From: Promethearchaeota archaeon
Lineage (GTDB): Archaea > Asgardarchaeota > Lokiarchaeia > Sigyniarchaeales > SOKP01
Direction of reading: 5' to 3'
Assembly: GCA_030606485.1 (NCBI GenBank)
Contig: JAUWGH010000002.1
Location: forward strand, 457,667 to 489,666
DNA length: 32,000 bases
Shown here: positions 8,807 through 18,024 of the stretch, piece after piece
Layout of the letters: each line of letters begins with the position of its first letter
Numbering within the stretch: the stretch's first letter is position 1
Notes under the pieces: generated by a model
The model's input: only the letters and a program-made list of their open reading frames with translations
Database searches by the model: none
What the model was told of the DNA's origin: nothing
Program-made: the position numbers and the translations under genes

Positions 8807-11800
8807 ATGCCTGATTCGAAGCGTAAAATAAGGCGCAAATATGTTTTATCTTCAATTATAATTGTTTTCATATTGTTTTCTTGTTTTTATCAGATTAAAA
8901 ACTCTTATTACTATTCCAGTGAGAATTATAGACCTATAAACACAAGTAATGGCCATGAACGGATTTTTATTGATGGAGATGCTACTGGAGTAGGTGCCCA
9001 AAATTGGACTTATGCGTTACAGCAAAATTGGTGTACTGGATCTGGAACTTGGGATGAACCATATATTATAGAGAATAAAAGAATAGATGGTCAGGAAATA
9101 GGAAACTGTATTGAAATAAGAGATTCCATAGCTTATTTTCAAATAAAGAATTGCACTCTCTATAATTCTAGCATAACGACGTCGGGAATACAATTAACAT
9201 ACGTTGATAATGGAATCATATTAAGCAATAATTGTTCTTTTAATAATGGTAATGGTATAGATATTTTTATGTGTGATAACAATACCGTAATAAATAATAC
9301 TGTGAGCAATAACACACTTTCAGGCATAAATTTGACTACCTTTAGCCACGATAACAACATTACCGGTAATCTTGTTAAAAATAATTTAAAAGATGGTATA
9401 AAAATTGGAAAAGAATTATTTTCAAACTGTAATGACAATATCCTTTCTAATAATTCAGTGATATCAAACGATGGTAATGGTATATCGATATTAAGTGATT
9501 ATAATGATCTTCTTAACAATAGCGTTTTATATAATAAATTAAATGGTATTTTTTTGAATCAAAGCCGTTATGGAAATATATGGAAAAATAATTGTTCTTA
9601 CAATTATGACTCTGGAATTTTAATTGATCGAGGTGATTATAATAATATTTCAGGTAACGAAATCAGTTATAATTACAAAGGTATTGATATTTCAGGGTTG
9701 TGGTTTTGGGAAGAATGTTTAGATAATGAGATCTCTAATAATAATATACATAATAATAGGGGAGGAGGGATTGAACAAGATTATTGTAAAAATACAATAA
9801 TTTCAAATAATAACTTTACTAACAACAAATTATATGGGGGATATAATAATAATAATACAAAGATTTATAAAAATACTTTCGAAAATAGTGGGATTTACTC
9901 ACATGATAGCAATTACTCAGTTATCTATGACAATAAAATAAACGCTAGTGATGATTATTGTATAAATATAAATCGGGCTTATTATTCCAATATAACGGGA
10001 AACACGATATATAATGGCGGCATATATTATGGAGGTATTCGCATTAATGAATGTAATTCTTCAATTCTTTCTAATAATACTTTAGACTTGAATACAAAAA
10101 AGGGAATTTATATATATTTAAGTAATCACACGACTTTGACTCAAAACAAAATGTATAATTGTGGTATCAAATTCGAGGATTCGTTAGAAAGCGCTTCTAC
10201 TTCTAATATTGATGCATCGAATACCATTAATGGTAACCCTGTGTATTTTTATTATAACAAATCCAACTTAAAACCAATTAATTTTACTGACGCAGGGCAA
10301 GTAATAGCGATTTATTGTAATGATTCGATTTTATCTAATTTTAACATCAGTTCTATTTTAAGCGGAATTTCAATGCATTTTTGCAAAAACATCTCTATTT
10401 CAGAAGTAAATATTAGTGAAAACGATTATGGTATTTATCTAAGCCAATGTATTAATATTACGATGAATAATATCACTCTTTCAGATAACGAATATGGAAT
10501 CTACCTTCCAAACAGTAATAATACAGTCATTTCAACGATCACATCTTTATTTAACGAGTACGGTATTATTTGTTATAGAAACCACAATATTACTATAAAC
10601 GAATGTAATATTAATTATAGCGAATATGGAATTATATCATCGGCTTGTAATAATATCAATCTTACTGGCAATACTATAGTCAATTGTGATTATGGTATTT
10701 ATACAACCTCAAATCGTAATGTCACTTTATGTTCAAATAGATTATTTAACTGTGGAGTAATATTAAATGATGTTATTTCAAATTTTTTAACTTATAAAAT
10801 AAATACCTCTAATAAGGTTAATAACAAACCTTTATATTTTTATACCAATAAACTTGGACTAAAACCTTTCAATTTTTCTAATGCGGGTCAAATAATATTA
10901 GTTAATTGTAATAACTCACGTATTTCGGATGTAAAAATGTCAAATTGTTCTCGTGGTGTTTCATTACTTTCTTGTAAAAACATTTCTATTTACAATGTTA
11001 CTTCAATAAATAATATAGATAGGGGTTTTTACTTAGGTGGAGGTTTTAACAACACTGTTCAAAAGTGTAATTTTTCATATAATTTAATTGGATTATATCT
11101 GGGAAATACACATAATAATACAATTTTAGAAACAAATACATCTCACAACACACAAGTGGGGATATATATTTCTGGAAGTAGAAATATCACTCTTATAGGA
11201 AATAGACTAAGTTACGACCTAGTGGGTATTAAGCTAGATAATAGTTATGATTGCAATCTTACAGATAATAATATGAAAAATTGCGGCATAGAAATTAAGG
11301 AATCTATTGACTGGGAAACTTATTCAACAAATTCTATTGATACAACAAATAAAGTAAATGGAAAAGATGTTTATTATTATTTTAATAAAACTAATCTAAA
11401 TTCAAATGATTTTATTAACGCAGGTCAAGTGATCCTTGTCAAATGCAACGACTCCTTAATAAATAACTTAAATATTACAAATATTTCTAATGGAATTTAT
11501 ATGTATTATTGCAATAATCATATTATTTCAAATTGTCAAATTACAAATAATAATTATGGAATTTATCTATATTTTGGGAATAATTTTTTACTAACAGGAA
11601 ATACCATAAATCGAAATTTTGTTGGTTTATCGTTAATCTCTAATAATAGTACAATAACTCAATGTGACTTTATAGAGAACAATCATTCCATTAGTGGAGA
11701 AGGAAGCAATAATCTAATTTATAACAATTATATTGACGGTAGTGCGTACCTTTGGCCTTCCAACAATTGGAATAATTCTTATGCAGGTAATTATTGGAGC

Positions 11801-13876
11801 AACTATAGCGGCGTTGATTCTGATAATGATGGAATTGGTGATACCCCTTATTTAATTTATGTGACTGGAGCGCCAGAAGTCTATTATGATTATAAACCCC
11901 TTATGAATCCACCAAATATAGATACAGACGGAGATGGATTATTAAATTCAGAAGAATATGATTTAGGAAATGATGGATATCTAACAAATGTAACCAATCC
12001 AGATTCGGATTACGATGGATTAAGTGATTATGACGAATGGATAAATCTAGCAAATCCATGGGATAATGACACAGATAATGACAGTATGCCAGATGGATGG
12101 GAAGTTTTAAATAGTTTAAATGTTATAGATGGTAATGATAATATAACAGACGCAGATAACGATGGAATATCAAATCTTAACGAGTTTTTTTACGGGACCA
12201 ATCCTCAAATGGCGGATACAGATCTGGATGGAATGCCAGATGGATGGGAATTAGATAATTCTTTAAATTTATTTGCAAATGATGCCATGGAAGATCCTGA
12301 CCTAGATACAATACTAAATTATTACGAATACTTGAATGGAACAGATCCAAGGAACAACGATACAGAATTTGATGGGATGCCTGACGGATGGGAGATTAAT
12401 AACTCATTAGACCCTTTAAATAATGACGCTATGAGCGATGCGGATAACGATCAGTTGGAAAATATTTACGAATTTTTGAACGGGACAGACCCTCATAACG
12501 ACGATTCTGATGGTGATACTATACTAGATGGTATTGAGGTTGGTTTACACACAGATCCTTTAGACGGTTTCTGGTTTCCGATGCCAAATTTGAAAATTTC
12601 AAGTTTTAGTGTAAGTGATGTTTACGAGGGTCAGGCATTTATTTTAAATTTTACGATTACTAATAATGGTATCTGGAAAGCAAATGGGATTATACTTTCG
12701 ATTCGATGTGAAGCGCTGAATTTAACGCTATATGAAAATATGGCTGAGCCATTTGATTTAGAAGTTAACAAGTCAAAAAATTTCCTCATAGATTGTACCT
12801 CAATATCTACAGCTGGAATTTTTGTACTAACATTGGATCTCGATCCAGGAAATTTATTAAACGAAACCTATAGTTCTCCTGATGGTTCGTATCGTTCTGA
12901 TTGGACAGAGGACAATATAAAACAAATAGAAATGCAAATTATCGAGGGGGATGGAGGTATTGCAGTAGAGATGTTTATCATTGTTGTTTCTGTAGCAGGG
13001 GTTATTATTGGTATGATAGGTCTTACAATTTTAGTAAGACCAAAAATAAAAAAAATCATATATTCAAAAAACCAACGGAACAAAGCTAAAGCAGAACTCG
13101 AAGACTTCGAGTTTAAAGTTCGAAATTTTATAAGAGAACAACTGGAAGAATTCTACGGAGCAGAATGGTGGGAAAAAGGAATACCAGAATATATTAGATT
13201 AGGTGTAGAAAATAAAATAAGAACCGAACAAATTAAAGCGCCAAAAATGAAAGTTCAAAATATTAATTATCTCGACTTCAATCATTATTTTCTAATTATT
13301 AATGAAAAAGAAAATTGGGACAATATTTTTTCAGATGTTTTTCAAGATAAAAATAAACTCGCAGAAAATTTCGAGAATTTAAGAGTATTTAAGAACAATA
13401 TTTCTCAAAATGTAGCTACTTCCCAGGAAATAGATGCGTATCTGTTTTATATTTATGGCATAACAACCTTTTTTACTAAAGGTTTTAATGTATTTCTTAG
13501 TTATTCGACATTGGATTCAGAATATTTTCAAATCTCAGAGATCGTGTCCCGCCTTGAGACTTATCCAAAAATGGATAAGATTTTCTTTTGGGAAGCAGAT
13601 AGTGGAGAAAATATTGTTGAATATATGGAAAGGATTTTAAACATTAGCAAAGTGTTTGTTATGTTTTGTTCTGAAAACTCTATAAAATCAAAAGCGGTAG
13701 AAGATGAATGGCAAGCTGCTTTTCAATTAAGAAAAAAGGGATTGATGAAAATAGTACCCGTGTATGAAGATGACCAATTTATCCCTAAATTATTAATGCC
13801 ACTTTTAAATGTGAAATTTTCTAAAGACGATTTTGATGGGTTTATCGACAAACTCTATGAAGAAATATTAAGGTAA
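8807..13876 (+). CDS. Receptor-like protein: signal/anchor, NosD/CASH right-handed beta-helix, DxDxDG Ca-binding repeats, CARDB/Ig-like domain, TM helix, Swt1-type HEPN-like domain, TIR domain
   Basis: N-terminal KRKIRRK plus hydrophobic stretch; many GI-x-L...NN-x-I-xx-N repeats; DTDxDGMPDGWE repeats; PNLKIS...FTITNNG...LDPGNLLNET (CARDB-like); TM at ~12971-13036; EFKVRNFI...WWEKGIP...YLDF (Swt1-like); VFLSYS...FVMFCSENSIKSKAVEDEW...IVPV (TIR). Confidence 0.9.
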   Translation: MPDSKRKIRRKYVLSSIIIVFILFSCFYQIKNSYYYSSENYRPINTSNGHERIFIDGDATGVGAQNWTYALQQNWCTGSGTWDEPYIIENKRIDGQEIGNCIEIRDSIAYFQIKNCTLYNSSITTSGIQLTYVDNGIILSNNCSFNNGNGIDIFMCDNNTVINNTVSNNTLSGINLTTFSHDNNITGNLVKNNLKDGIKIGKELFSNCNDNILSNNSVISNDGNGISILSDYNDLLNNSVLYNKLNGIFLNQSRYGNIWKNNCSYNYDSGILIDRGDYNNISGNEISYNYKGIDISGLWFWEECLDNEISNNNIHNNRGGGIEQDYCKNTIISNNNFTNNKLYGGYNNNNTKIYKNTFENSGIYSHDSNYSVIYDNKINASDDYCININRAYYSNITGNTIYNGGIYYGGIRINECNSSILSNNTLDLNTKKGIYIYLSNHTTLTQNKMYNCGIKFEDSLESASTSNIDASNTINGNPVYFYYNKSNLKPINFTDAGQVIAIYCNDSILSNFNISSILSGISMHFCKNISISEVNISENDYGIYLSQCINITMNNITLSDNEYGIYLPNSNNTVISTITSLFNEYGIICYRNHNITINECNINYSEYGIISSACNNINLTGNTIVNCDYGIYTTSNRNVTLCSNRLFNCGVILNDVISNFLTYKINTSNKVNNKPLYFYTNKLGLKPFNFSNAGQIILVNCNNSRISDVKMSNCSRGVSLLSCKNISIYNVTSINNIDRGFYLGGGFNNTVQKCNFSYNLIGLYLGNTHNNTILETNTSHNTQVGIYISGSRNITLIGNRLSYDLVGIKLDNSYDCNLTDNNMKNCGIEIKESIDWETYSTNSIDTTNKVNGKDVYYYFNKTNLNSNDFINAGQVILVKCNDSLINNLNITNISNGIYMYYCNNHIISNCQITNNNYGIYLYFGNNFLLTGNTINRNFVGLSLISNNSTITQCDFIENNHSISGEGSNNLIYNNYIDGSAYLWPSNNWNNSYAGNYWSNYSGVDSDNDGIGDTPYLIYVTGAPEVYYDYKPLMNPPNIDTDGDGLLNSEEYDLGNDGYLTNVTNPDSDYDGLSDYDEWINLANPWDNDTDNDSMPDGWEVLNSLNVIDGNDNITDADNDGISNLNEFFYGTNPQMADTDLDGMPDGWELDNSLNLFANDAMEDPDLDTILNYYEYLNGTDPRNNDTEFDGMPDGWEINNSLDPLNNDAMSDADNDQLENIYEFLNGTDPHNDDSDGDTILDGIEVGLHTDPLDGFWFPMPNLKISSFSVSDVYEGQAFILNFTITNNGIWKANGIILSIRCEALNLTLYENMAEPFDLEVNKSKNFLIDCTSISTAGIFVLTLDLDPGNLLNETYSSPDGSYRSDWTEDNIKQIEMQIIEGDGGIAVEMFIIVVSVAGVIIGMIGLTILVRPKIKKIIYSKNQRNKAKAELEDFEFKVRNFIREQLEEFYGAEWWEKGIPEYIRLGVENKIRTEQIKAPKMKVQNINYLDFNHYFLIINEKENWDNIFSDVFQDKNKLAENFENLRVFKNNISQNVATSQEIDAYLFYIYGITTFFTKGFNVFLSYSTLDSEYFQISEIVSRLETYPKMDKIFFWEADSGENIVEYMERILNISKVFVMFCSENSIKSKAVEDEWQAAFQLRKKGLMKIVPVYEDDQFIPKLLMPLLNVKFSKDDFDGFIDKLYEEILR
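11921..12568 (+). repeat. Coding tandem repeats: thrombospondin type 3-like Ca-binding DxDxDG units
   Basis: About ten units such as DTDGDGLLNSEE, DTDNDSMPDGWE, DTDLDGMPDGWE, DSDGDTILDGIE, separated by GTNP/GTDP linkers. Confidence 0.85.
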
Positions 13877-14068
13877 AAATTTACAGTATTCTATTACAAT
13901 ACTTTTTGCTTCATTGGATTTTTATTTTATCCAAAATATGTAAGATTTTTATAATAAATCGACCAATATTTTCATAAATAAATAAAGCGATTTCAATAGG
14001 ATTTATATTAAGAAATCAAATGGGTATTTTACAATTGGAAATTAAGAAACTGATTTAAAAATGTTAAA

Positions 14069-14255
14069 AAATTAATAGATTATTATGAAGATGATTGGTG
14101 GGATAATGGGATTCGTAATTTGGAAAGTAGACAGTGGTGAAAGTGTTGTTAAATTGATGAAGGAAGCTTTAACCATAAGTTATGTGTTTATACTTTTTTG
14201 TTCAGAAAATTCAAAAAAGTCTGAGGCTGTAAAAGGTGAATGACAAGCAGTTTTT
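14069..14255 (+). pseudogene. Relic of a HEPN-TIR gene paralogous to the 3' end of the 1689-aa gene
   Basis: 14121-14255 reads WKVDSGESVVKLMKEALTISYVFILFCSENSKKSEAVKGE*QAVF, gap-free against WEADSGENIVEYMERILNISKVFVMFCSENSIKSKAVEDEWQAAF (26/45 identical), with TGA at 14241 in place of Trp. In another frame just upstream, KLIDYYEDDWWDNGI resembles QLEEFYGAEWWEKGI. Confidence 0.85.
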
Positions 14256-14299
14256 GATTATGGAGGAAATGGATAATTTTCCTATTTTACTGCCATTTT

Positions 14300-16816
14300 T
14301 TAAATATTCTCAAAGAATTTTAAAATTTCTTGCCCAAAAACTCTAGACATGATTTCCGCCATTCTTTTTTCATTTCTATAACTTCTAACTTGTTGAAGAT
14401 TTTTAAAATCATCCATTAATTCTTCTTCACATATTTTAGTATAATCTTCTATTTTTTTTGTTAAAGATTTTGAAGGTTTTTCAAAAAGAAAAAAGAATAT
14501 TCTAAAATCTTCTGTTCTAAAAGGAGTCATCGTTATAGCACCTCCTTCAGCGGATAGGATAGGAATCTCTCCAAATCCAATTTCACTAGCAAAACTTTGA
14601 ATTGCTGATAAAAGACCAGACATTAAATCACCTGGTTGAGATATATCTGAGAAATCCTTTTCATAGATACTTGCTCCATAAATATGTTGAATTAAAAGTT
14701 TTCGAAGATTTTCGATATCAGGATCAGTAGTAAATGGTTTTGTAAGAAACTCATGGATTTCTTCTGAAGTATTATTGATTACTTTAAATAGTCTTTTAGG
14801 TTTTTCAAGATGCTTAATGTTATTCTTTTCTAACCAATTTTTATCATTAATCAATTCTGATGCTTCGCGTCCACTATTTTTTATAATAGCCACTTGTGCT
14901 CCAAAAGCAATTGCCATTCGATATTCAAGTGCAGCAATTTTTCCTCCATTAATTCCAATTAATTTTACATTACTATGATCTAATCCAGATTTTAAAATAT
15001 CATACCAATATTGTAATGCTTCAAGAATACTAAAATCTGTTCCTATTGTTGAGTGAATCTTTTTATAACGTTCGTCAATCTTGATATCATAAGGTAGTAG
15101 ATGTGGAATGTATCCAATAGTTTTTATAGTTTCGGGATATTTTTCTTGAATATCACCAACAATTCTACAAATTCCTGATTTAGTACCTCCAGATATAATT
15201 GTTCCTTTAAAATCACAAAACCCATCAGTAAGAGTATTTTTGTAGTTTTGGAGCAGTTTTTCTAATCTTGCATCAGTCCCACCTGCTATAATTACAATGG
15301 GTTCTTTAAGATCATTTTCTTTTATTTCCATACAATTATCCAATTTCTTTAGAGCATCACTGTACATTTTTTGATTGTATGAGAGATTTTTATTAGGATG
15401 AAACAGTATCCCTAATAATAATAAACTTCTGATTAATTCAATCCCAGGCATTTGGTTATGAATATTTTTAAGTTCATCTAAAGTATTTAGAGTTGTATCA
15501 ATCATCCACATATTCTGACTATGATTTATTCCATTTAAGTAATAAATAAGACTGTCGTCTAACTTACCAAGAAAAAACGAAAAAAGTCCCATATCAAAAA
15601 ATGCCCAAGGTATCTCAACTTTAACTTCTATTTGATTTAATCTTCTTTCAATACCTTTTTGAATCAATTCTTTATTATATTTAATATGTTTTAAATTTCC
15701 AGTTTTCTGAATTTTCATTATTAGGTAATTTAATAAAGGATATGGATGCGAAGGATCAGCCTTTAAAGCTTTTTTGTAATATTTATATGCTTTTTCATAA
15801 TCTTTAAGAATTTTATAAGATCCACCTAAGGAAGCAAAAGCATCTGAATCCATTGGATTTTTTTCAACTGCTGTTTTCAAATATGATTGCCCCTCTACAT
15901 ATCTTGAACTTCTTGGATTATTTTTATTTTTTTTATATAATGCTATTCCAAGATCTCGTAAAACGGACGCTTGTTTTAAATCAGGATACTTTTTCCATTC
16001 ATCTATTTTTAAAATATTTTCAATAATCACTATAGTTTTATCCCATTCATTAATTGCCATTGCTAACTTAGCGATTTTATGAGCAATATCGAAATCGTTT
16101 TTATTCGCAGAATATACTAATTCTAATTTTTTTATCTCATCTTTAATTCTTTCATTGGACATGTAAGCTCCATAGCTAGATTCGTAATCACGCATTTTCT
16201 TTATTAGAGTATTTAAGGATATATCAGCAGTCTCTAAAAGCGCTTTTATTCGATTAAATTCTCGAATATATGGTTTAGGGATTTTAAATTCAGTTTTATA
16301 AAGACTTCCATATTTATTTACTTCCCAGCCATGTTGCAAGAAAGTACGTATTTGAATTTCTGCTTTTAAACCAAAAATTTCGTCGGGAACATGTAATTCT
16401 AATCTCTTATAGAGATCTGATTTGGGATTGAGTTCTACAATAAAATTTTTCAGTAATTCTTGAAGTTCTAATTTATCGGTTTTACTTTTTTCATTTTCTT
16501 CAATTATAATAAAATGTTTTTGCATTAACTTGCTGACAGTATTTAATTCGTCCAAATTGGGTAATATTATTTTTAATCCAATTAAATCATTCATTTCTTC
16601 AGTTACATTTGAATTATTTATATTTGAATTAAAAATTTCATCAATAAAACCATAAATAGTCTTTGTCTTTCCCTCAATCATGAATTCAGAAGAATAACTT
16701 CCAATAATATGAGTCAGAATTTTTTCTAATATTTCACAATATTGTTCATAAAGAGGAAGTGAGTAACAGTAAGAATTTATTTGACTTTTGATAAAATTAA
16801 GCGTTTTTTCATCCAT
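14300..16816 (-). CDS. Multidomain protein: degenerate RelA/SpoT-like nucleotidyltransferase, TPR repeats, SLOG-like domain, C-terminal longin-like domain
   Basis: DLIGLKII and EIQIRTFLQHGW...LYK (RelA/SpoT-like); TPRs such as DAFASLGGSYKILKDYEKAYKYYKKALKADP; IIAGGT, IISGGTKSG, GINGGKIAALEYRMA (SLOG-like); LLIQHIYGASIYEKDF...DLMSGLLSAIQSFASEIG (longin-like). Confidence 0.8.
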   Translation of the reverse strand: MDEKTLNFIKSQINSYCYSLPLYEQYCEILEKILTHIIGSYSSEFMIEGKTKTIYGFIDEIFNSNINNSNVTEEMNDLIGLKIILPNLDELNTVSKLMQKHFIIIEENEKSKTDKLELQELLKNFIVELNPKSDLYKRLELHVPDEIFGLKAEIQIRTFLQHGWEVNKYGSLYKTEFKIPKPYIREFNRIKALLETADISLNTLIKKMRDYESSYGAYMSNERIKDEIKKLELVYSANKNDFDIAHKIAKLAMAINEWDKTIVIIENILKIDEWKKYPDLKQASVLRDLGIALYKKNKNNPRSSRYVEGQSYLKTAVEKNPMDSDAFASLGGSYKILKDYEKAYKYYKKALKADPSHPYPLLNYLIMKIQKTGNLKHIKYNKELIQKGIERRLNQIEVKVEIPWAFFDMGLFSFFLGKLDDSLIYYLNGINHSQNMWMIDTTLNTLDELKNIHNQMPGIELIRSLLLLGILFHPNKNLSYNQKMYSDALKKLDNCMEIKENDLKEPIVIIAGGTDARLEKLLQNYKNTLTDGFCDFKGTIISGGTKSGICRIVGDIQEKYPETIKTIGYIPHLLPYDIKIDERYKKIHSTIGTDFSILEALQYWYDILKSGLDHSNVKLIGINGGKIAALEYRMAIAFGAQVAIIKNSGREASELINDKNWLEKNNIKHLEKPKRLFKVINNTSEEIHEFLTKPFTTDPDIENLRKLLIQHIYGASIYEKDFSDISQPGDLMSGLLSAIQSFASEIGFGEIPILSAEGGAITMTPFRTEDFRIFFFLFEKPSKSLTKKIEDYTKICEEELMDDFKNLQQVRSYRNEKRMAEIMSRVFGQEILKFFENI

Positions 16817-17252: not shown

Positions 17253-17301
17253 TAAAAGCTCGAACTTTCAAGTCACCGTTTTAGTAAATTTCTTTAGCAT
17301 T

Positions 17302-17379
17302 CTACCATAGAAATTCCTTATAGAGTTTCTTAATAAACCAATCGAAATCATCTATAGTAAACTCAACATTTAAAAGCGG
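17302..17379 (-). pseudogene. Relic of a TIR gene C-terminus
   Basis: Reads PLLNVEFTIDDFDWFIKKLYKEFLW* against PLLNVKFSKDDFDGFIDKLYEEILR* of the 1689-aa protein: 17/25 identical, no gaps, same stop position. In-frame TAA at 17395-17397 upstream and no start codon. Confidence 0.8.
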
Positions 17380-17463
17380 CCAGAAAAAAAACTCTTAGAA
17401 CTAAAGAATGAATAAATGTTATTATTGATTGCAATACGGTTGTTTTTATTATTATGGTTATTA

Positions 17464-18024
17464 TTATTGTGAGATTGAACGAGACTTATTAAATTTATTA
17501 TATAACTCTTTAATAATTGCATGGAATCCTTGGGAAACTCGAGTCCCTGTTAATGCTGATGTTCTGTAATATCCAAGAAAGTTTCGCTTTTTTACTATTT
17601 TCAGAACCTTATTATCGTTTAAATTTTTCTCATCAACTAAATCAACTTTATTGCCAAATAATACGGTAGGTATATTGCCACAATAATTTTTAATATTATC
17701 ATGCCAATTCGTAATATGTTTAAAACTTTCTTGACCAAGATCATTTTCTTCAAGAGAATATACGATAATAGCAGCTTTACTCTCTTTATAGAAAGAGGGG
17801 CGTAAAAAATTAAAATCATCTTGTCCGGCTATATCCCAAAATAAAAGTTTGAAATAATTGCCATCTATTTCCTCTTCATAGCTAAAAAATTGCGCTCCTA
17901 TGGTTTTAATATATTCCTTTTGAAACCTACCTTTTGTAAATTTAGTAATTAATGATGTTTTTCCTACTGCTCCGTCTCCTACAACTGATATTTTAAATGT
18001 AAATTTATCGCCGCCTTTATTCAT
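17464..18024 (-). CDS. Rab/Ras-like small GTPase
   Basis: G1 GDGAVGKTS, G2 TIGAQF, G3 WDIAGQ, G4 GNKVDL, G5 TSAL. No C-terminal prenylation cysteines (ends SRSISQ). Confidence 0.95.
   Translation of the reverse strand: MNKGGDKFTFKISVVGDGAVGKTSLITKFTKGRFQKEYIKTIGAQFFSYEEEIDGNYFKLLFWDIAGQDDFNFLRPSFYKESKAAIIVYSLEENDLGQESFKHITNWHDNIKNYCGNIPTVLFGNKVDLVDEKNLNDNKVLKIVKKRNFLGYYRTSALTGTRVSQGFHAIIKELYNKFNKSRSISQ

Follow-up and report, generated by a model that had tools for sequence, protein, structure and literature searches.

Which signal is received by a single archaeal protein that combines a RelA/SpoT-type nucleotidyltransferase domain, a tetratricopeptide repeat (TPR) region, a SLOG domain and a longin-fold domain, and which partner does it act with? 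The gene in question, for which we coin the name RSL, lies at positions 14300-16816 on the minus strand of a 32,000-nucleotide stretch of contig JAUWGH010000002.1 (Promethearchaeota archaeon, assembly GCA_030606485.1), referred to here as the window. It is an intact open reading frame (ORF) of 838 codons with zero internal stops, in local DNA of approximately 28% G+C, and it is present as a single copy in its 3.75-Mb genome. A first-pass annotation of the locus, made from the letters alone, had described a nucleotide sensor, probably not an active alarmone synthetase, wired to small-GTPase control; all the strings that it quoted were found in the translation of the 838-residue ORF, and its four domains proved to be real by Pfam, by AlphaFold2 (AF2) models and by fold searches. 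A word-indexed search returned approximately 50 relatives, some 35 of which have equal length and architecture (35-59% identity, with one at 99%) and, where they carry source names, come from Lokiarchaeota or Promethearchaeota; the others are shorter forms of approximately 600-700 residues, or forms of approximately 835 residues with a RyR domain. Because homologues of the same architecture exist, RSL is a real, conserved gene rather than a chance ORF. The reading of its role that we favour, with moderate confidence, is that RSL is the SLOG-bearing receiver or effector of a Thoeris-like TIR pair, common to Promethearchaeota and scattered bacteria.

This reading rests first on the gene neighbourhood. 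We compared the flanks of RSL relatives in 24 GTDB species-representative genomes, 15 of them archaeal (12 with a usable upstream flank) and nine bacterial. At 11 of the 12 informative archaeal loci, all from Promethearchaeota, a TIR gene of one subfamily lies upstream on the same strand, in nine cases within approximately 710 nt. At loci L003, L004 and L007, a TIR_2 gene sits directly upstream of RSL on the same strand, with gaps of 475, 476 and 196 nt, respectively, and these TIR domains are 64-69% identical to that of a receptor encoded in the window. The receptor gene (8807-13876, plus strand) is convergent to RSL and encodes a protein of 1689 residues with beta-helix, HEPN and TIR parts (Pfam NosD/Beta_helix, HEPN_Swt1 and TIR_2); its TIR domain (13460-13873, plus strand) is of the same subfamily as the conserved partners of RSL genes, being 53-68% identical to 12 partner TIRs, while partner TIRs overall are 53-85% identical to it. 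A DEW motif whose glutamate never varies is shared by 13 partner TIRs, and we take this glutamate to occupy the position of the catalytic one in enzymatic TIRs. TIR and RelA/SpoT-TPR-S-SLOG thus form a conserved gene pair, and the conserved partner of RSL is the TIR gene, not the GTPase gene that adjoins it in this window; the reading therefore moves from a regulator of a GTPase to a receiver of a TIR-made nucleotide signal.

In addition, very large DUF4062-TPR/LRR genes lie directly downstream of the RSL genes at L005 and L008, and DUF4062 is, we presume, a TIR-like family. Within its own genome, Pfam TIR_2 is found in three places only, namely the receptor gene, a remnant interrupted by an in-frame TGA (see below) and one gene on another contig. 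This last gene, the other intact TIR gene of the genome (L048:2417-4474, plus strand), encodes a 686-residue fusion of TIR_2 with SLOG cluster2 (PF18163, 279 bits), a second and independent association of TIR with SLOG in this organism. Among the candidate-defence families of PADLOC, PDC-S33 resembles the RelA domain, PDC-S07 the NUDIX protein of the bacterial loci described below and PDC-M34B the HEPN domain, while ThsB weakly resembles the TIR domain.

The SLOG domain (residues 496-697; 14726-15331, minus strand) is a predicted nucleotide-binding module of the LSDAT type, the type found at the N-terminus of TRPM channels. Pfam LSDAT_prok ('SLOG in TRPM, prokaryote') matches RSL at 29.7 bits, against a cut-off of 25.4, and an AF2 model of the domain, built with 23 aligned members, has a mean predicted local distance difference test score (pLDDT) of 91.7. 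The top Foldseek matches of this model were all N-terminal MHR1/2 regions, of TRPM4, TRPM2, TRPM8 and TRPM7. A second fold search, independent of Foldseek and scored by Z, gave the LOG-like protein TM1055 (Z 18.8), full-length TRPM2 (16.4) and its isolated domain (15.6), LOG enzymes (approximately 14-15), DprA (13.5) and the SLOG domain of ThsA with bound 3'cADPR, an isomer of cyclic ADP-ribose (cADPR; 11.2). The fold proposed for this domain by the first-pass annotation is therefore supported by structure prediction, as is that of the longin-like tail considered below. The likeness to TRPM MHR1/2, which includes the ADP-ribose site of TRPM2, extends over the whole 202-residue model but is one of overall fold, at 14-18% identity, and RSL has no channel; several of the TRPM2 entries among the top matches were, according to their titles, solved with ADP-ribose. 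Among the 23 members, three glycine-rich loops (AGGT, SGGTKSG and GINGGKIAALE) vary little or not at all; together with an acidic residue, they are likened here to the GGxGTxxE of LOG-type proteins. SLOG is the most conserved domain of the family, with 54-66% identity to most Asgard members.

Preceding the SLOG domain is a TPR region, probably of the TPR-S (sensor) type (residues 233-495; 15332-16120, minus strand), assigned from Pfam matches and invariant motifs. Pfam finds classical repeats at residues 325-357, with TPR_2 at 326-357 (33.5 bits), and TPR-S (PF20308), which is carried by several RSL homologues, matches residues 271-367 at 27.2 bits, slightly below its cut-off of 27.6. Across the family, the motifs PYPLxNYL and PWAxFDxG of this region are invariant. 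For the ThsI effector, the proposed cADPR sensor is a TPR of a type that Aravind predicted (preprint 10.64898/2025.12.03.692087).

A close known parallel is type I Thoeris, in which the TIR protein ThsB makes a cADPR isomer that binds the SLOG domain of ThsA, a SIR2-SLOG protein. The two systems are alike in pairing a TIR gene with a SLOG gene, in a catalytic-type TIR glutamate and in a patchy distribution; for RSL, among 201 genomes sampled from the phylum, the SLOG type was found in nine, and among 41 from the same family in seven. They differ in that the RSL SLOG belongs to the LSDAT/TRPM clade, not the ThsA clade, that the enzyme domain is RelA/SpoT-like rather than SIR2, that RSL adds TPR-S and longin parts, that the partner is a membrane receptor of 1689 residues and that a defence phenotype is known for Thoeris only.

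The pair extends beyond the archaea. Bacterial relatives are 27-36% identical to RSL over residues 1 to approximately 670 and have the same domain order, and the nine bacterial loci come from Anaerolineales, Chloroflexia, Omnitrophota, Planctomycetota, Pseudomonadota and Desulfosudis. Their gene set (L009, L010 and L029-L037) has a small, PDC-S07-like NUDIX gene directly upstream and an RyR-repeat protein upstream, with TIR or DUF4062-NACHT/WD40 genes alongside. The bacterial RelA/SpoT-TPR-SLOG proteins thus share with RSL both domain order and TIR linkage, but, unlike RSL, have complete synthetase motifs, the NUDIX gene directly upstream and, in place of the longin domain, either a C-terminal RyR domain, in the forms of approximately 830 residues, or none. 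The Asgard longin sits where these longer bacterial forms carry RyR.

On the Thoeris-like reading, triggering of a variable N-terminal sensor, which in this window would be the large beta-helix ectodomain of the receptor, would lead the partner TIR to convert NAD+ into an ADP-ribose-derived signal. The SLOG domain, possibly with TPR-S, would bind this signal and switch the outputs, which would be supplied by the N-terminal nucleotidyltransferase and the C-terminal domain. In the bacterial relatives the output would probably be pyrophosphokinase activity, with the NUDIX gene as an off-switch; in this copy the enzymatic output has probably been lost, and the longin domain would provide a dimerization or docking output.

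Several points weigh against this proposal. No TIR was found in the flank at hand for L001/L002, L006, L021 and L039, and RSL's own direct upstream TIR is broken, the remaining TIR gene being convergent and not co-transcribed with it. The identity of the signal, the ligand of the SLOG domain and the output are all inferred, and the analogy with Thoeris gives no account of what the longin domain does. Furthermore, a huge membrane receptor as partner seems better suited to environmental signalling than to the sensing of phage in the cytosol, and a role in 'defence' is therefore uncertain.

The broken TIR copy can, however, be traced to a rearrangement. The remains of the central part of a second TIR copy lie at 14085-14273 on the plus strand (tblastn E 3e-12 to 6e-10), contain the in-frame TGA and end 27 nt before the RSL stop codon. 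On the other side of RSL, approximately 490 nt upstream of its start, a relic of a TIR 3' end lies at 17279-17380 on the minus strand (tblastn match to the last 21 TIR residues, E 2e-4); it and 13798-13899, at the end of the receptor gene, make up a 102-nt inverted repeat with 73% complementarity, and its spacing matches that between the TIR stop and the RSL start at L003, L004, L014, L015 and L027. These features indicate an inversion of approximately 3.1 kb, comprising the TIR 3' end and RSL, with breaks inside the second TIR copy and downstream of RSL, because such an event accounts for both relics, the spacing, the inverted repeat and the present convergent layout. Before this event, the order would have been receptor, TIR copy and RSL, all on the plus strand, followed by a Rab-like gene on the minus strand.

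Two RSL paralogues share one contig at L005:4896-13563 (837 residues with, and 667 residues without, a longin domain), flanking a DUF4062-TPR gene of 1221 residues. Two copies are apparently broken: at L024:2098-4668 the frame stops at 616 residues and the upstream TIR match is in two pieces, and at L036:6785-7114 there is only a 109-residue ORF at the matched start. A protein of approximately 601 residues with a C-terminal HEPN domain, PDC-M34B-like and related to the HEPN of the receptor tail, is encoded at L038:2692-5482, L039:961-3751 and L006:1403-4229; together with a Band_7/SPFH gene, it recurs beside the RSL genes with the most degenerate synthetase motifs (P0008 and P0015), and also near P0005.

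The N-terminal domain (residues 1-232; 16121-16816, minus strand) is of the RelA/SpoT nucleotidyltransferase type, nearest to RelQ/RelP, which are small alarmone synthetases, with an active site that is degenerate in this copy. Pfam RelA_SpoT matches residues 51-168 at 38.8 bits (cut-off 27), and a profile of the family's N-domain, compared with known structures, reaches E 1e-14 with RelQ/RelP and 5e-7 with CapRel, a toxSAS, aligning motif for motif. RSL nevertheless differs from these standalone enzymes in being fused to sensor domains and at several motif positions. Its ATP-site motifs, RxKxxxSxxxK and DxxGxR in canonical form, are incomplete and read GKTKTIYGFIDEI (with GKTK at residues 49-52) and DLIGLK (residues 77-82): Lys52, Asp77 and Gly80 are kept, Arg50 and Arg82 are both replaced by lysine, the serine has become tyrosine and the second lysine glutamate. 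The acceptor G-loop GYxSxH, with its tyrosine and histidine, is missing in RSL and in the main Asgard clade; in known RelA/SpoT homologue enzymes the tyrosine of this loop stacks on the acceptor base. EIQxRT is intact (AEIQIRT, residues 153-159), and HxWAxxxHxxxYK reads HGWEVNKYGSLYK (HGWEVNKY at residues 162-169), in which alanine has become glutamate and histidine tyrosine, with the YK kept.

A table of the synthetase motifs over 46 family members bore out the degenerate site that the first-pass annotation had described from GKTK, DLIGLK, the missing GYxSxH and WEVNKY, and placed it in a wider context. All bacterial relatives have the canonical motifs RxKxxxSFxEK, DLxGxR, FGYRSxH, EIQxRT and HAWAxxxHxxxYK. 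Deep Asgard members (P0033, P0034, P0037 and L026) keep most of them, with the G-loop as FGYLSxH, and the main Promethearchaeota clade keeps both ATP-site motifs and EIQI(R/C/G)T, with the G-loop changed to H(F/Y)QTY and the last histidine gone (WAANQY). Erosion has gone further in the window's own subclade, here with the two arginine replacements and loss of the Ser/Lys pair, and in P0003, P0008 and P0015 with replacement of the catalytic-motif glutamate by lysine; Lys52, Asp77 and Thr158 are invariant throughout. The degenerate site is thus the end of a stepwise trend and not a property of the whole family. Whether erosion of the synthetase tracks loss of the TIR gene was considered and gave a mixed picture: P0003 has no nearby TIR, P0008 has a TIR-LRR gene 3 kb off and the window's copy has a TIR gene adjacent.

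These motifs bear directly on the possibility that this copy is still an active enzyme, which the SLOG ligand would activate to arrest growth, whether as an alarmone synthetase or as a pyrophosphokinase of the toxSAS kind. Such activity would be compatible with the retention of Lys52, Asp77, Glu154 and Thr158, with the conservative nature of the two Arg-to-Lys changes and with an N-domain that is full-length in all of the approximately 50 members, at 40-53% identity; the profile match to CapRel, the full motif set of the bacterial relatives and their adjoining NUDIX gene, a possible product hydrolase, point the same way. However, RSL has no G-loop, its WAxxxH histidine is tyrosine and its RxKxxxSxxxK has lost both serine and second lysine; moreover, its nearest relatives, P0003, P0008 and P0015, have no glutamate in EIQxRT, and catalysis is therefore arguably dispensable in that subclade. 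We consider an active enzyme unlikely, and canonical (p)ppGpp synthesis by this copy in particular appears unlikely from its motifs. Nucleotide binding by the N-domain may well persist; indeed, binding of a nucleotide seems more likely than synthesis of (p)ppGpp, because the Asgard clade has lost the acceptor-binding G-loop and two phosphate-binding arginines are here replaced by lysine.

The C-terminal domain (residues 698-838; 14303-14725, minus strand), which includes SGLLSAIQSFASEIG, is an Asgard-specific addition that is not present in the bacterial relatives, and was identified solely by fold search. A Pfam scan gave zero matches on residues approximately 698-838, and a profile of the domain against the sequences of the PDB returned only noise, the best match being a transaldolase at E 0.01. 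An AF2 model of residues 696-838 has a pLDDT of 86.1 and a predicted template modelling score of 0.83, with secondary-structure elements, by DSSP, in the order b-b-a-b-b-b-a-a. Its fold matches were TRAPP Trs23 (Z 11.2 over 119 residues), the mu and sigma N-domains of AP-2, AP-3 and AP-4 (10.3-10.8), the VAMP7 longin domain and synbindin (10.1 each), SRX (9.8-10.0) and sedlin, Fuzzy and Mon1-Ccz1 (8.8-9.9), with TRAPP Bet5 also among the matches at Z 9-11. Because longin proteins align over model residues approximately 7-136, and Roadblock, MglB and LAMTOR over only the shared core, 4-108, the modelled fold is that of a longin rather than a roadblock. The domain shares its topology with the longins of the TRAPP core (Trs23/Bet5, TRAPPC1/C4), Mon1-Ccz1 and AP sigma/mu (Z 9-11.2) over approximately 120 residues that include the C-terminal helices, but differs from them in its approximately 9% identity, in having no match to Pfam Longin, in forming the C-terminus of a nucleotide-signalling protein and in having no conserved partner longin or GTPase gene near it.

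The same longin type is widespread. Its profile finds 518 representative clusters of varied and mostly unannotated architecture and ten places in the organism's own genome, where five of seven other longin-type proteins scanned had no Pfam match; among 79 other proteins with this longin type, a Pfam scan likewise annotated only a minority, including one Ras fusion and a few TPR proteins. An Atlas cluster comprising 376 proteins from Promethearchaeota combines this longin with Arf/Roc/Ras, and the own genome encodes one such protein (L046:920-1801, minus strand), of 294 residues with an N-terminal longin and an Arf/Roc/Ras GTPase, which the longin profile matches at E 7e-4 and whose longin part scores 25.1 against Pfam Longin and 23.6 against Fuz_longin_1, both slightly below the cut-offs. 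Such a distribution would also be consistent with a module that has a general docking or adaptor role. Within the RSL family there are two longin subtypes: a PGDLMSGLLSAIQSF type, with 65-70% identity among P0001, P0003 and P0027, and a DNTIFSGFLTALD type, 34-41% identical to the window's copy and 27-31% for the deeper P0033-P0035; because of these low identities between subtypes, the longin is the most divergent domain between subclades.

A longin domain beside a small GTPase gene raises the possibility, proposed from the outset in the first-pass annotation, that the longin regulates the adjoining Rab-like GTPase as the platform of a nucleotide sensor, in the manner of a guanine nucleotide exchange factor (GEF) or GTPase-activating protein. 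The gene (17464-18024, minus strand) encodes 186 residues, matches Pfam Ras at 146.7 bits and is a neighbour of RSL only in this genome. Such a link finds support in the RSL longin fold, which is nearest to that of the Rab-GEF subunits Trs23/Bet5, and in the fusions of this longin type to Arf/Ras GTPases seen in the Atlas cluster and in the 294-residue protein. When the co-folding of longin and GTPase suggested in that annotation was carried out, with two longin copies and the Rab, it gave a score of 0.45 compared with 0.00 for the best control; the runs agreed in at least 82% of contacts, with a partner pLDDT of at least 77. Of 80 solved complexes, 58 attained this mark, as did two of 110 mismatched pairs; scores no higher than 0.60, however, were given by only seven of the 80 and by both mismatches. 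A score of this grade is more often wrong than right unless the pairing is likely beforehand, and it may reflect memory of solved complexes of longins or roadblocks with GTPases. The result was graded as weak support and is therefore not counted as positive evidence.

The genomic context speaks against the link. By tblastn with the window's Rab, no Ras-type gene was found within 7 kb of the RSL relative at any of the 24 GTDB loci, and none of 13 further loci has an adjoining GTPase gene. An Arf-like gene approximately 5 kb away and a Roadblock gene approximately 3 kb away were seen at L011; this is taken as chance in view of the 64 Ras-type matches in the window's own genome, and from the same number the probability of a chance Ras-type neighbour for RSL is estimated at a few per cent. 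The Rab is conserved broadly across Asgard archaea, being far more widespread than the RSL family, and RSL and Rab were convergent before the inversion. We conclude that the Rab is probably not part of the RSL system, and that regulation of it by the longin is quite unlikely; the small-GTPase wiring initially proposed for this gene is thus not supported by the loci compared. The Rab is itself 65-74% identical to proteins of Promethearchaeota and of Hod-, Thor- and Hermodarchaeota, a high conservation that suggests a core Asgard Rab orthologue. An extended relay, in which the receptor TIR would make an NAD-derived messenger for the TRPM-type SLOG, which would act through a longin platform on a Rab- or Arf-like GTPase or another longin protein, seems to us quite improbable too.

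Finally, it is very unlikely that RSL is an orphaned remnant, drifting since the inversion killed its cognate TIR, for although broken TIR copies flank it on both sides, its synthetase motifs are among the most degenerate of the family and broken copies occur at L024 (616-residue ORF) and L036 (109-residue ORF), its 838-codon frame has stayed open in a genome of 28% G+C, every residue that is invariant in the SLOG, TPR and longin parts is kept, other samples contain a full-length copy with 99% identity and an intact TIR of the partner subfamily still adjoins it.

The favoured reading, of RSL as receiver or effector in a TIR pair, joins elements that have been described separately. SLOG and LSDAT were reportedly defined by Burroughs et al. 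in 2015 (in Nucleic Acids Research), and the bacterial core may already figure there; full-text literature searches found no paper on the RSL architecture, and PF04607, PF18171 and PF20308 are all missing from the supplements of a 2025 survey of Thoeris. Fusions of longin, roadblock and GTPase domains in Asgard archaea have been described, and the RSL architecture is not among them (PMC10933270).

TIR-to-SLOG nucleotide signalling is established in bacterial Thoeris, and an LSDAT SLOG domain senses ADP-ribose in animal TRPM2, while the longin fold is otherwise tied to Rab/Arf regulation and is regarded as a eukaryotic signature. RSL brings the TIR-SLOG and LSDAT themes together with a longin, and does so in the prokaryotes most closely related to eukaryotes. 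The family offers a tractable test of the ligand of a prokaryotic LSDAT SLOG domain, as well as a natural series, from a RelA/SpoT enzyme with full motifs to a probable pseudo-enzyme, with which the repurposing of effector domains can be examined, and RSL itself is a concrete protein for asking what Asgard longins bind. Were the longin and GTPase relay true, the system would unite parts later used separately by eukaryotes in immunity, ion channels and membrane traffic; and if the TIR partner is indeed a receptor at the cell surface, an archaeon would here have transmembrane TIR signalling relayed by a soluble nucleotide.

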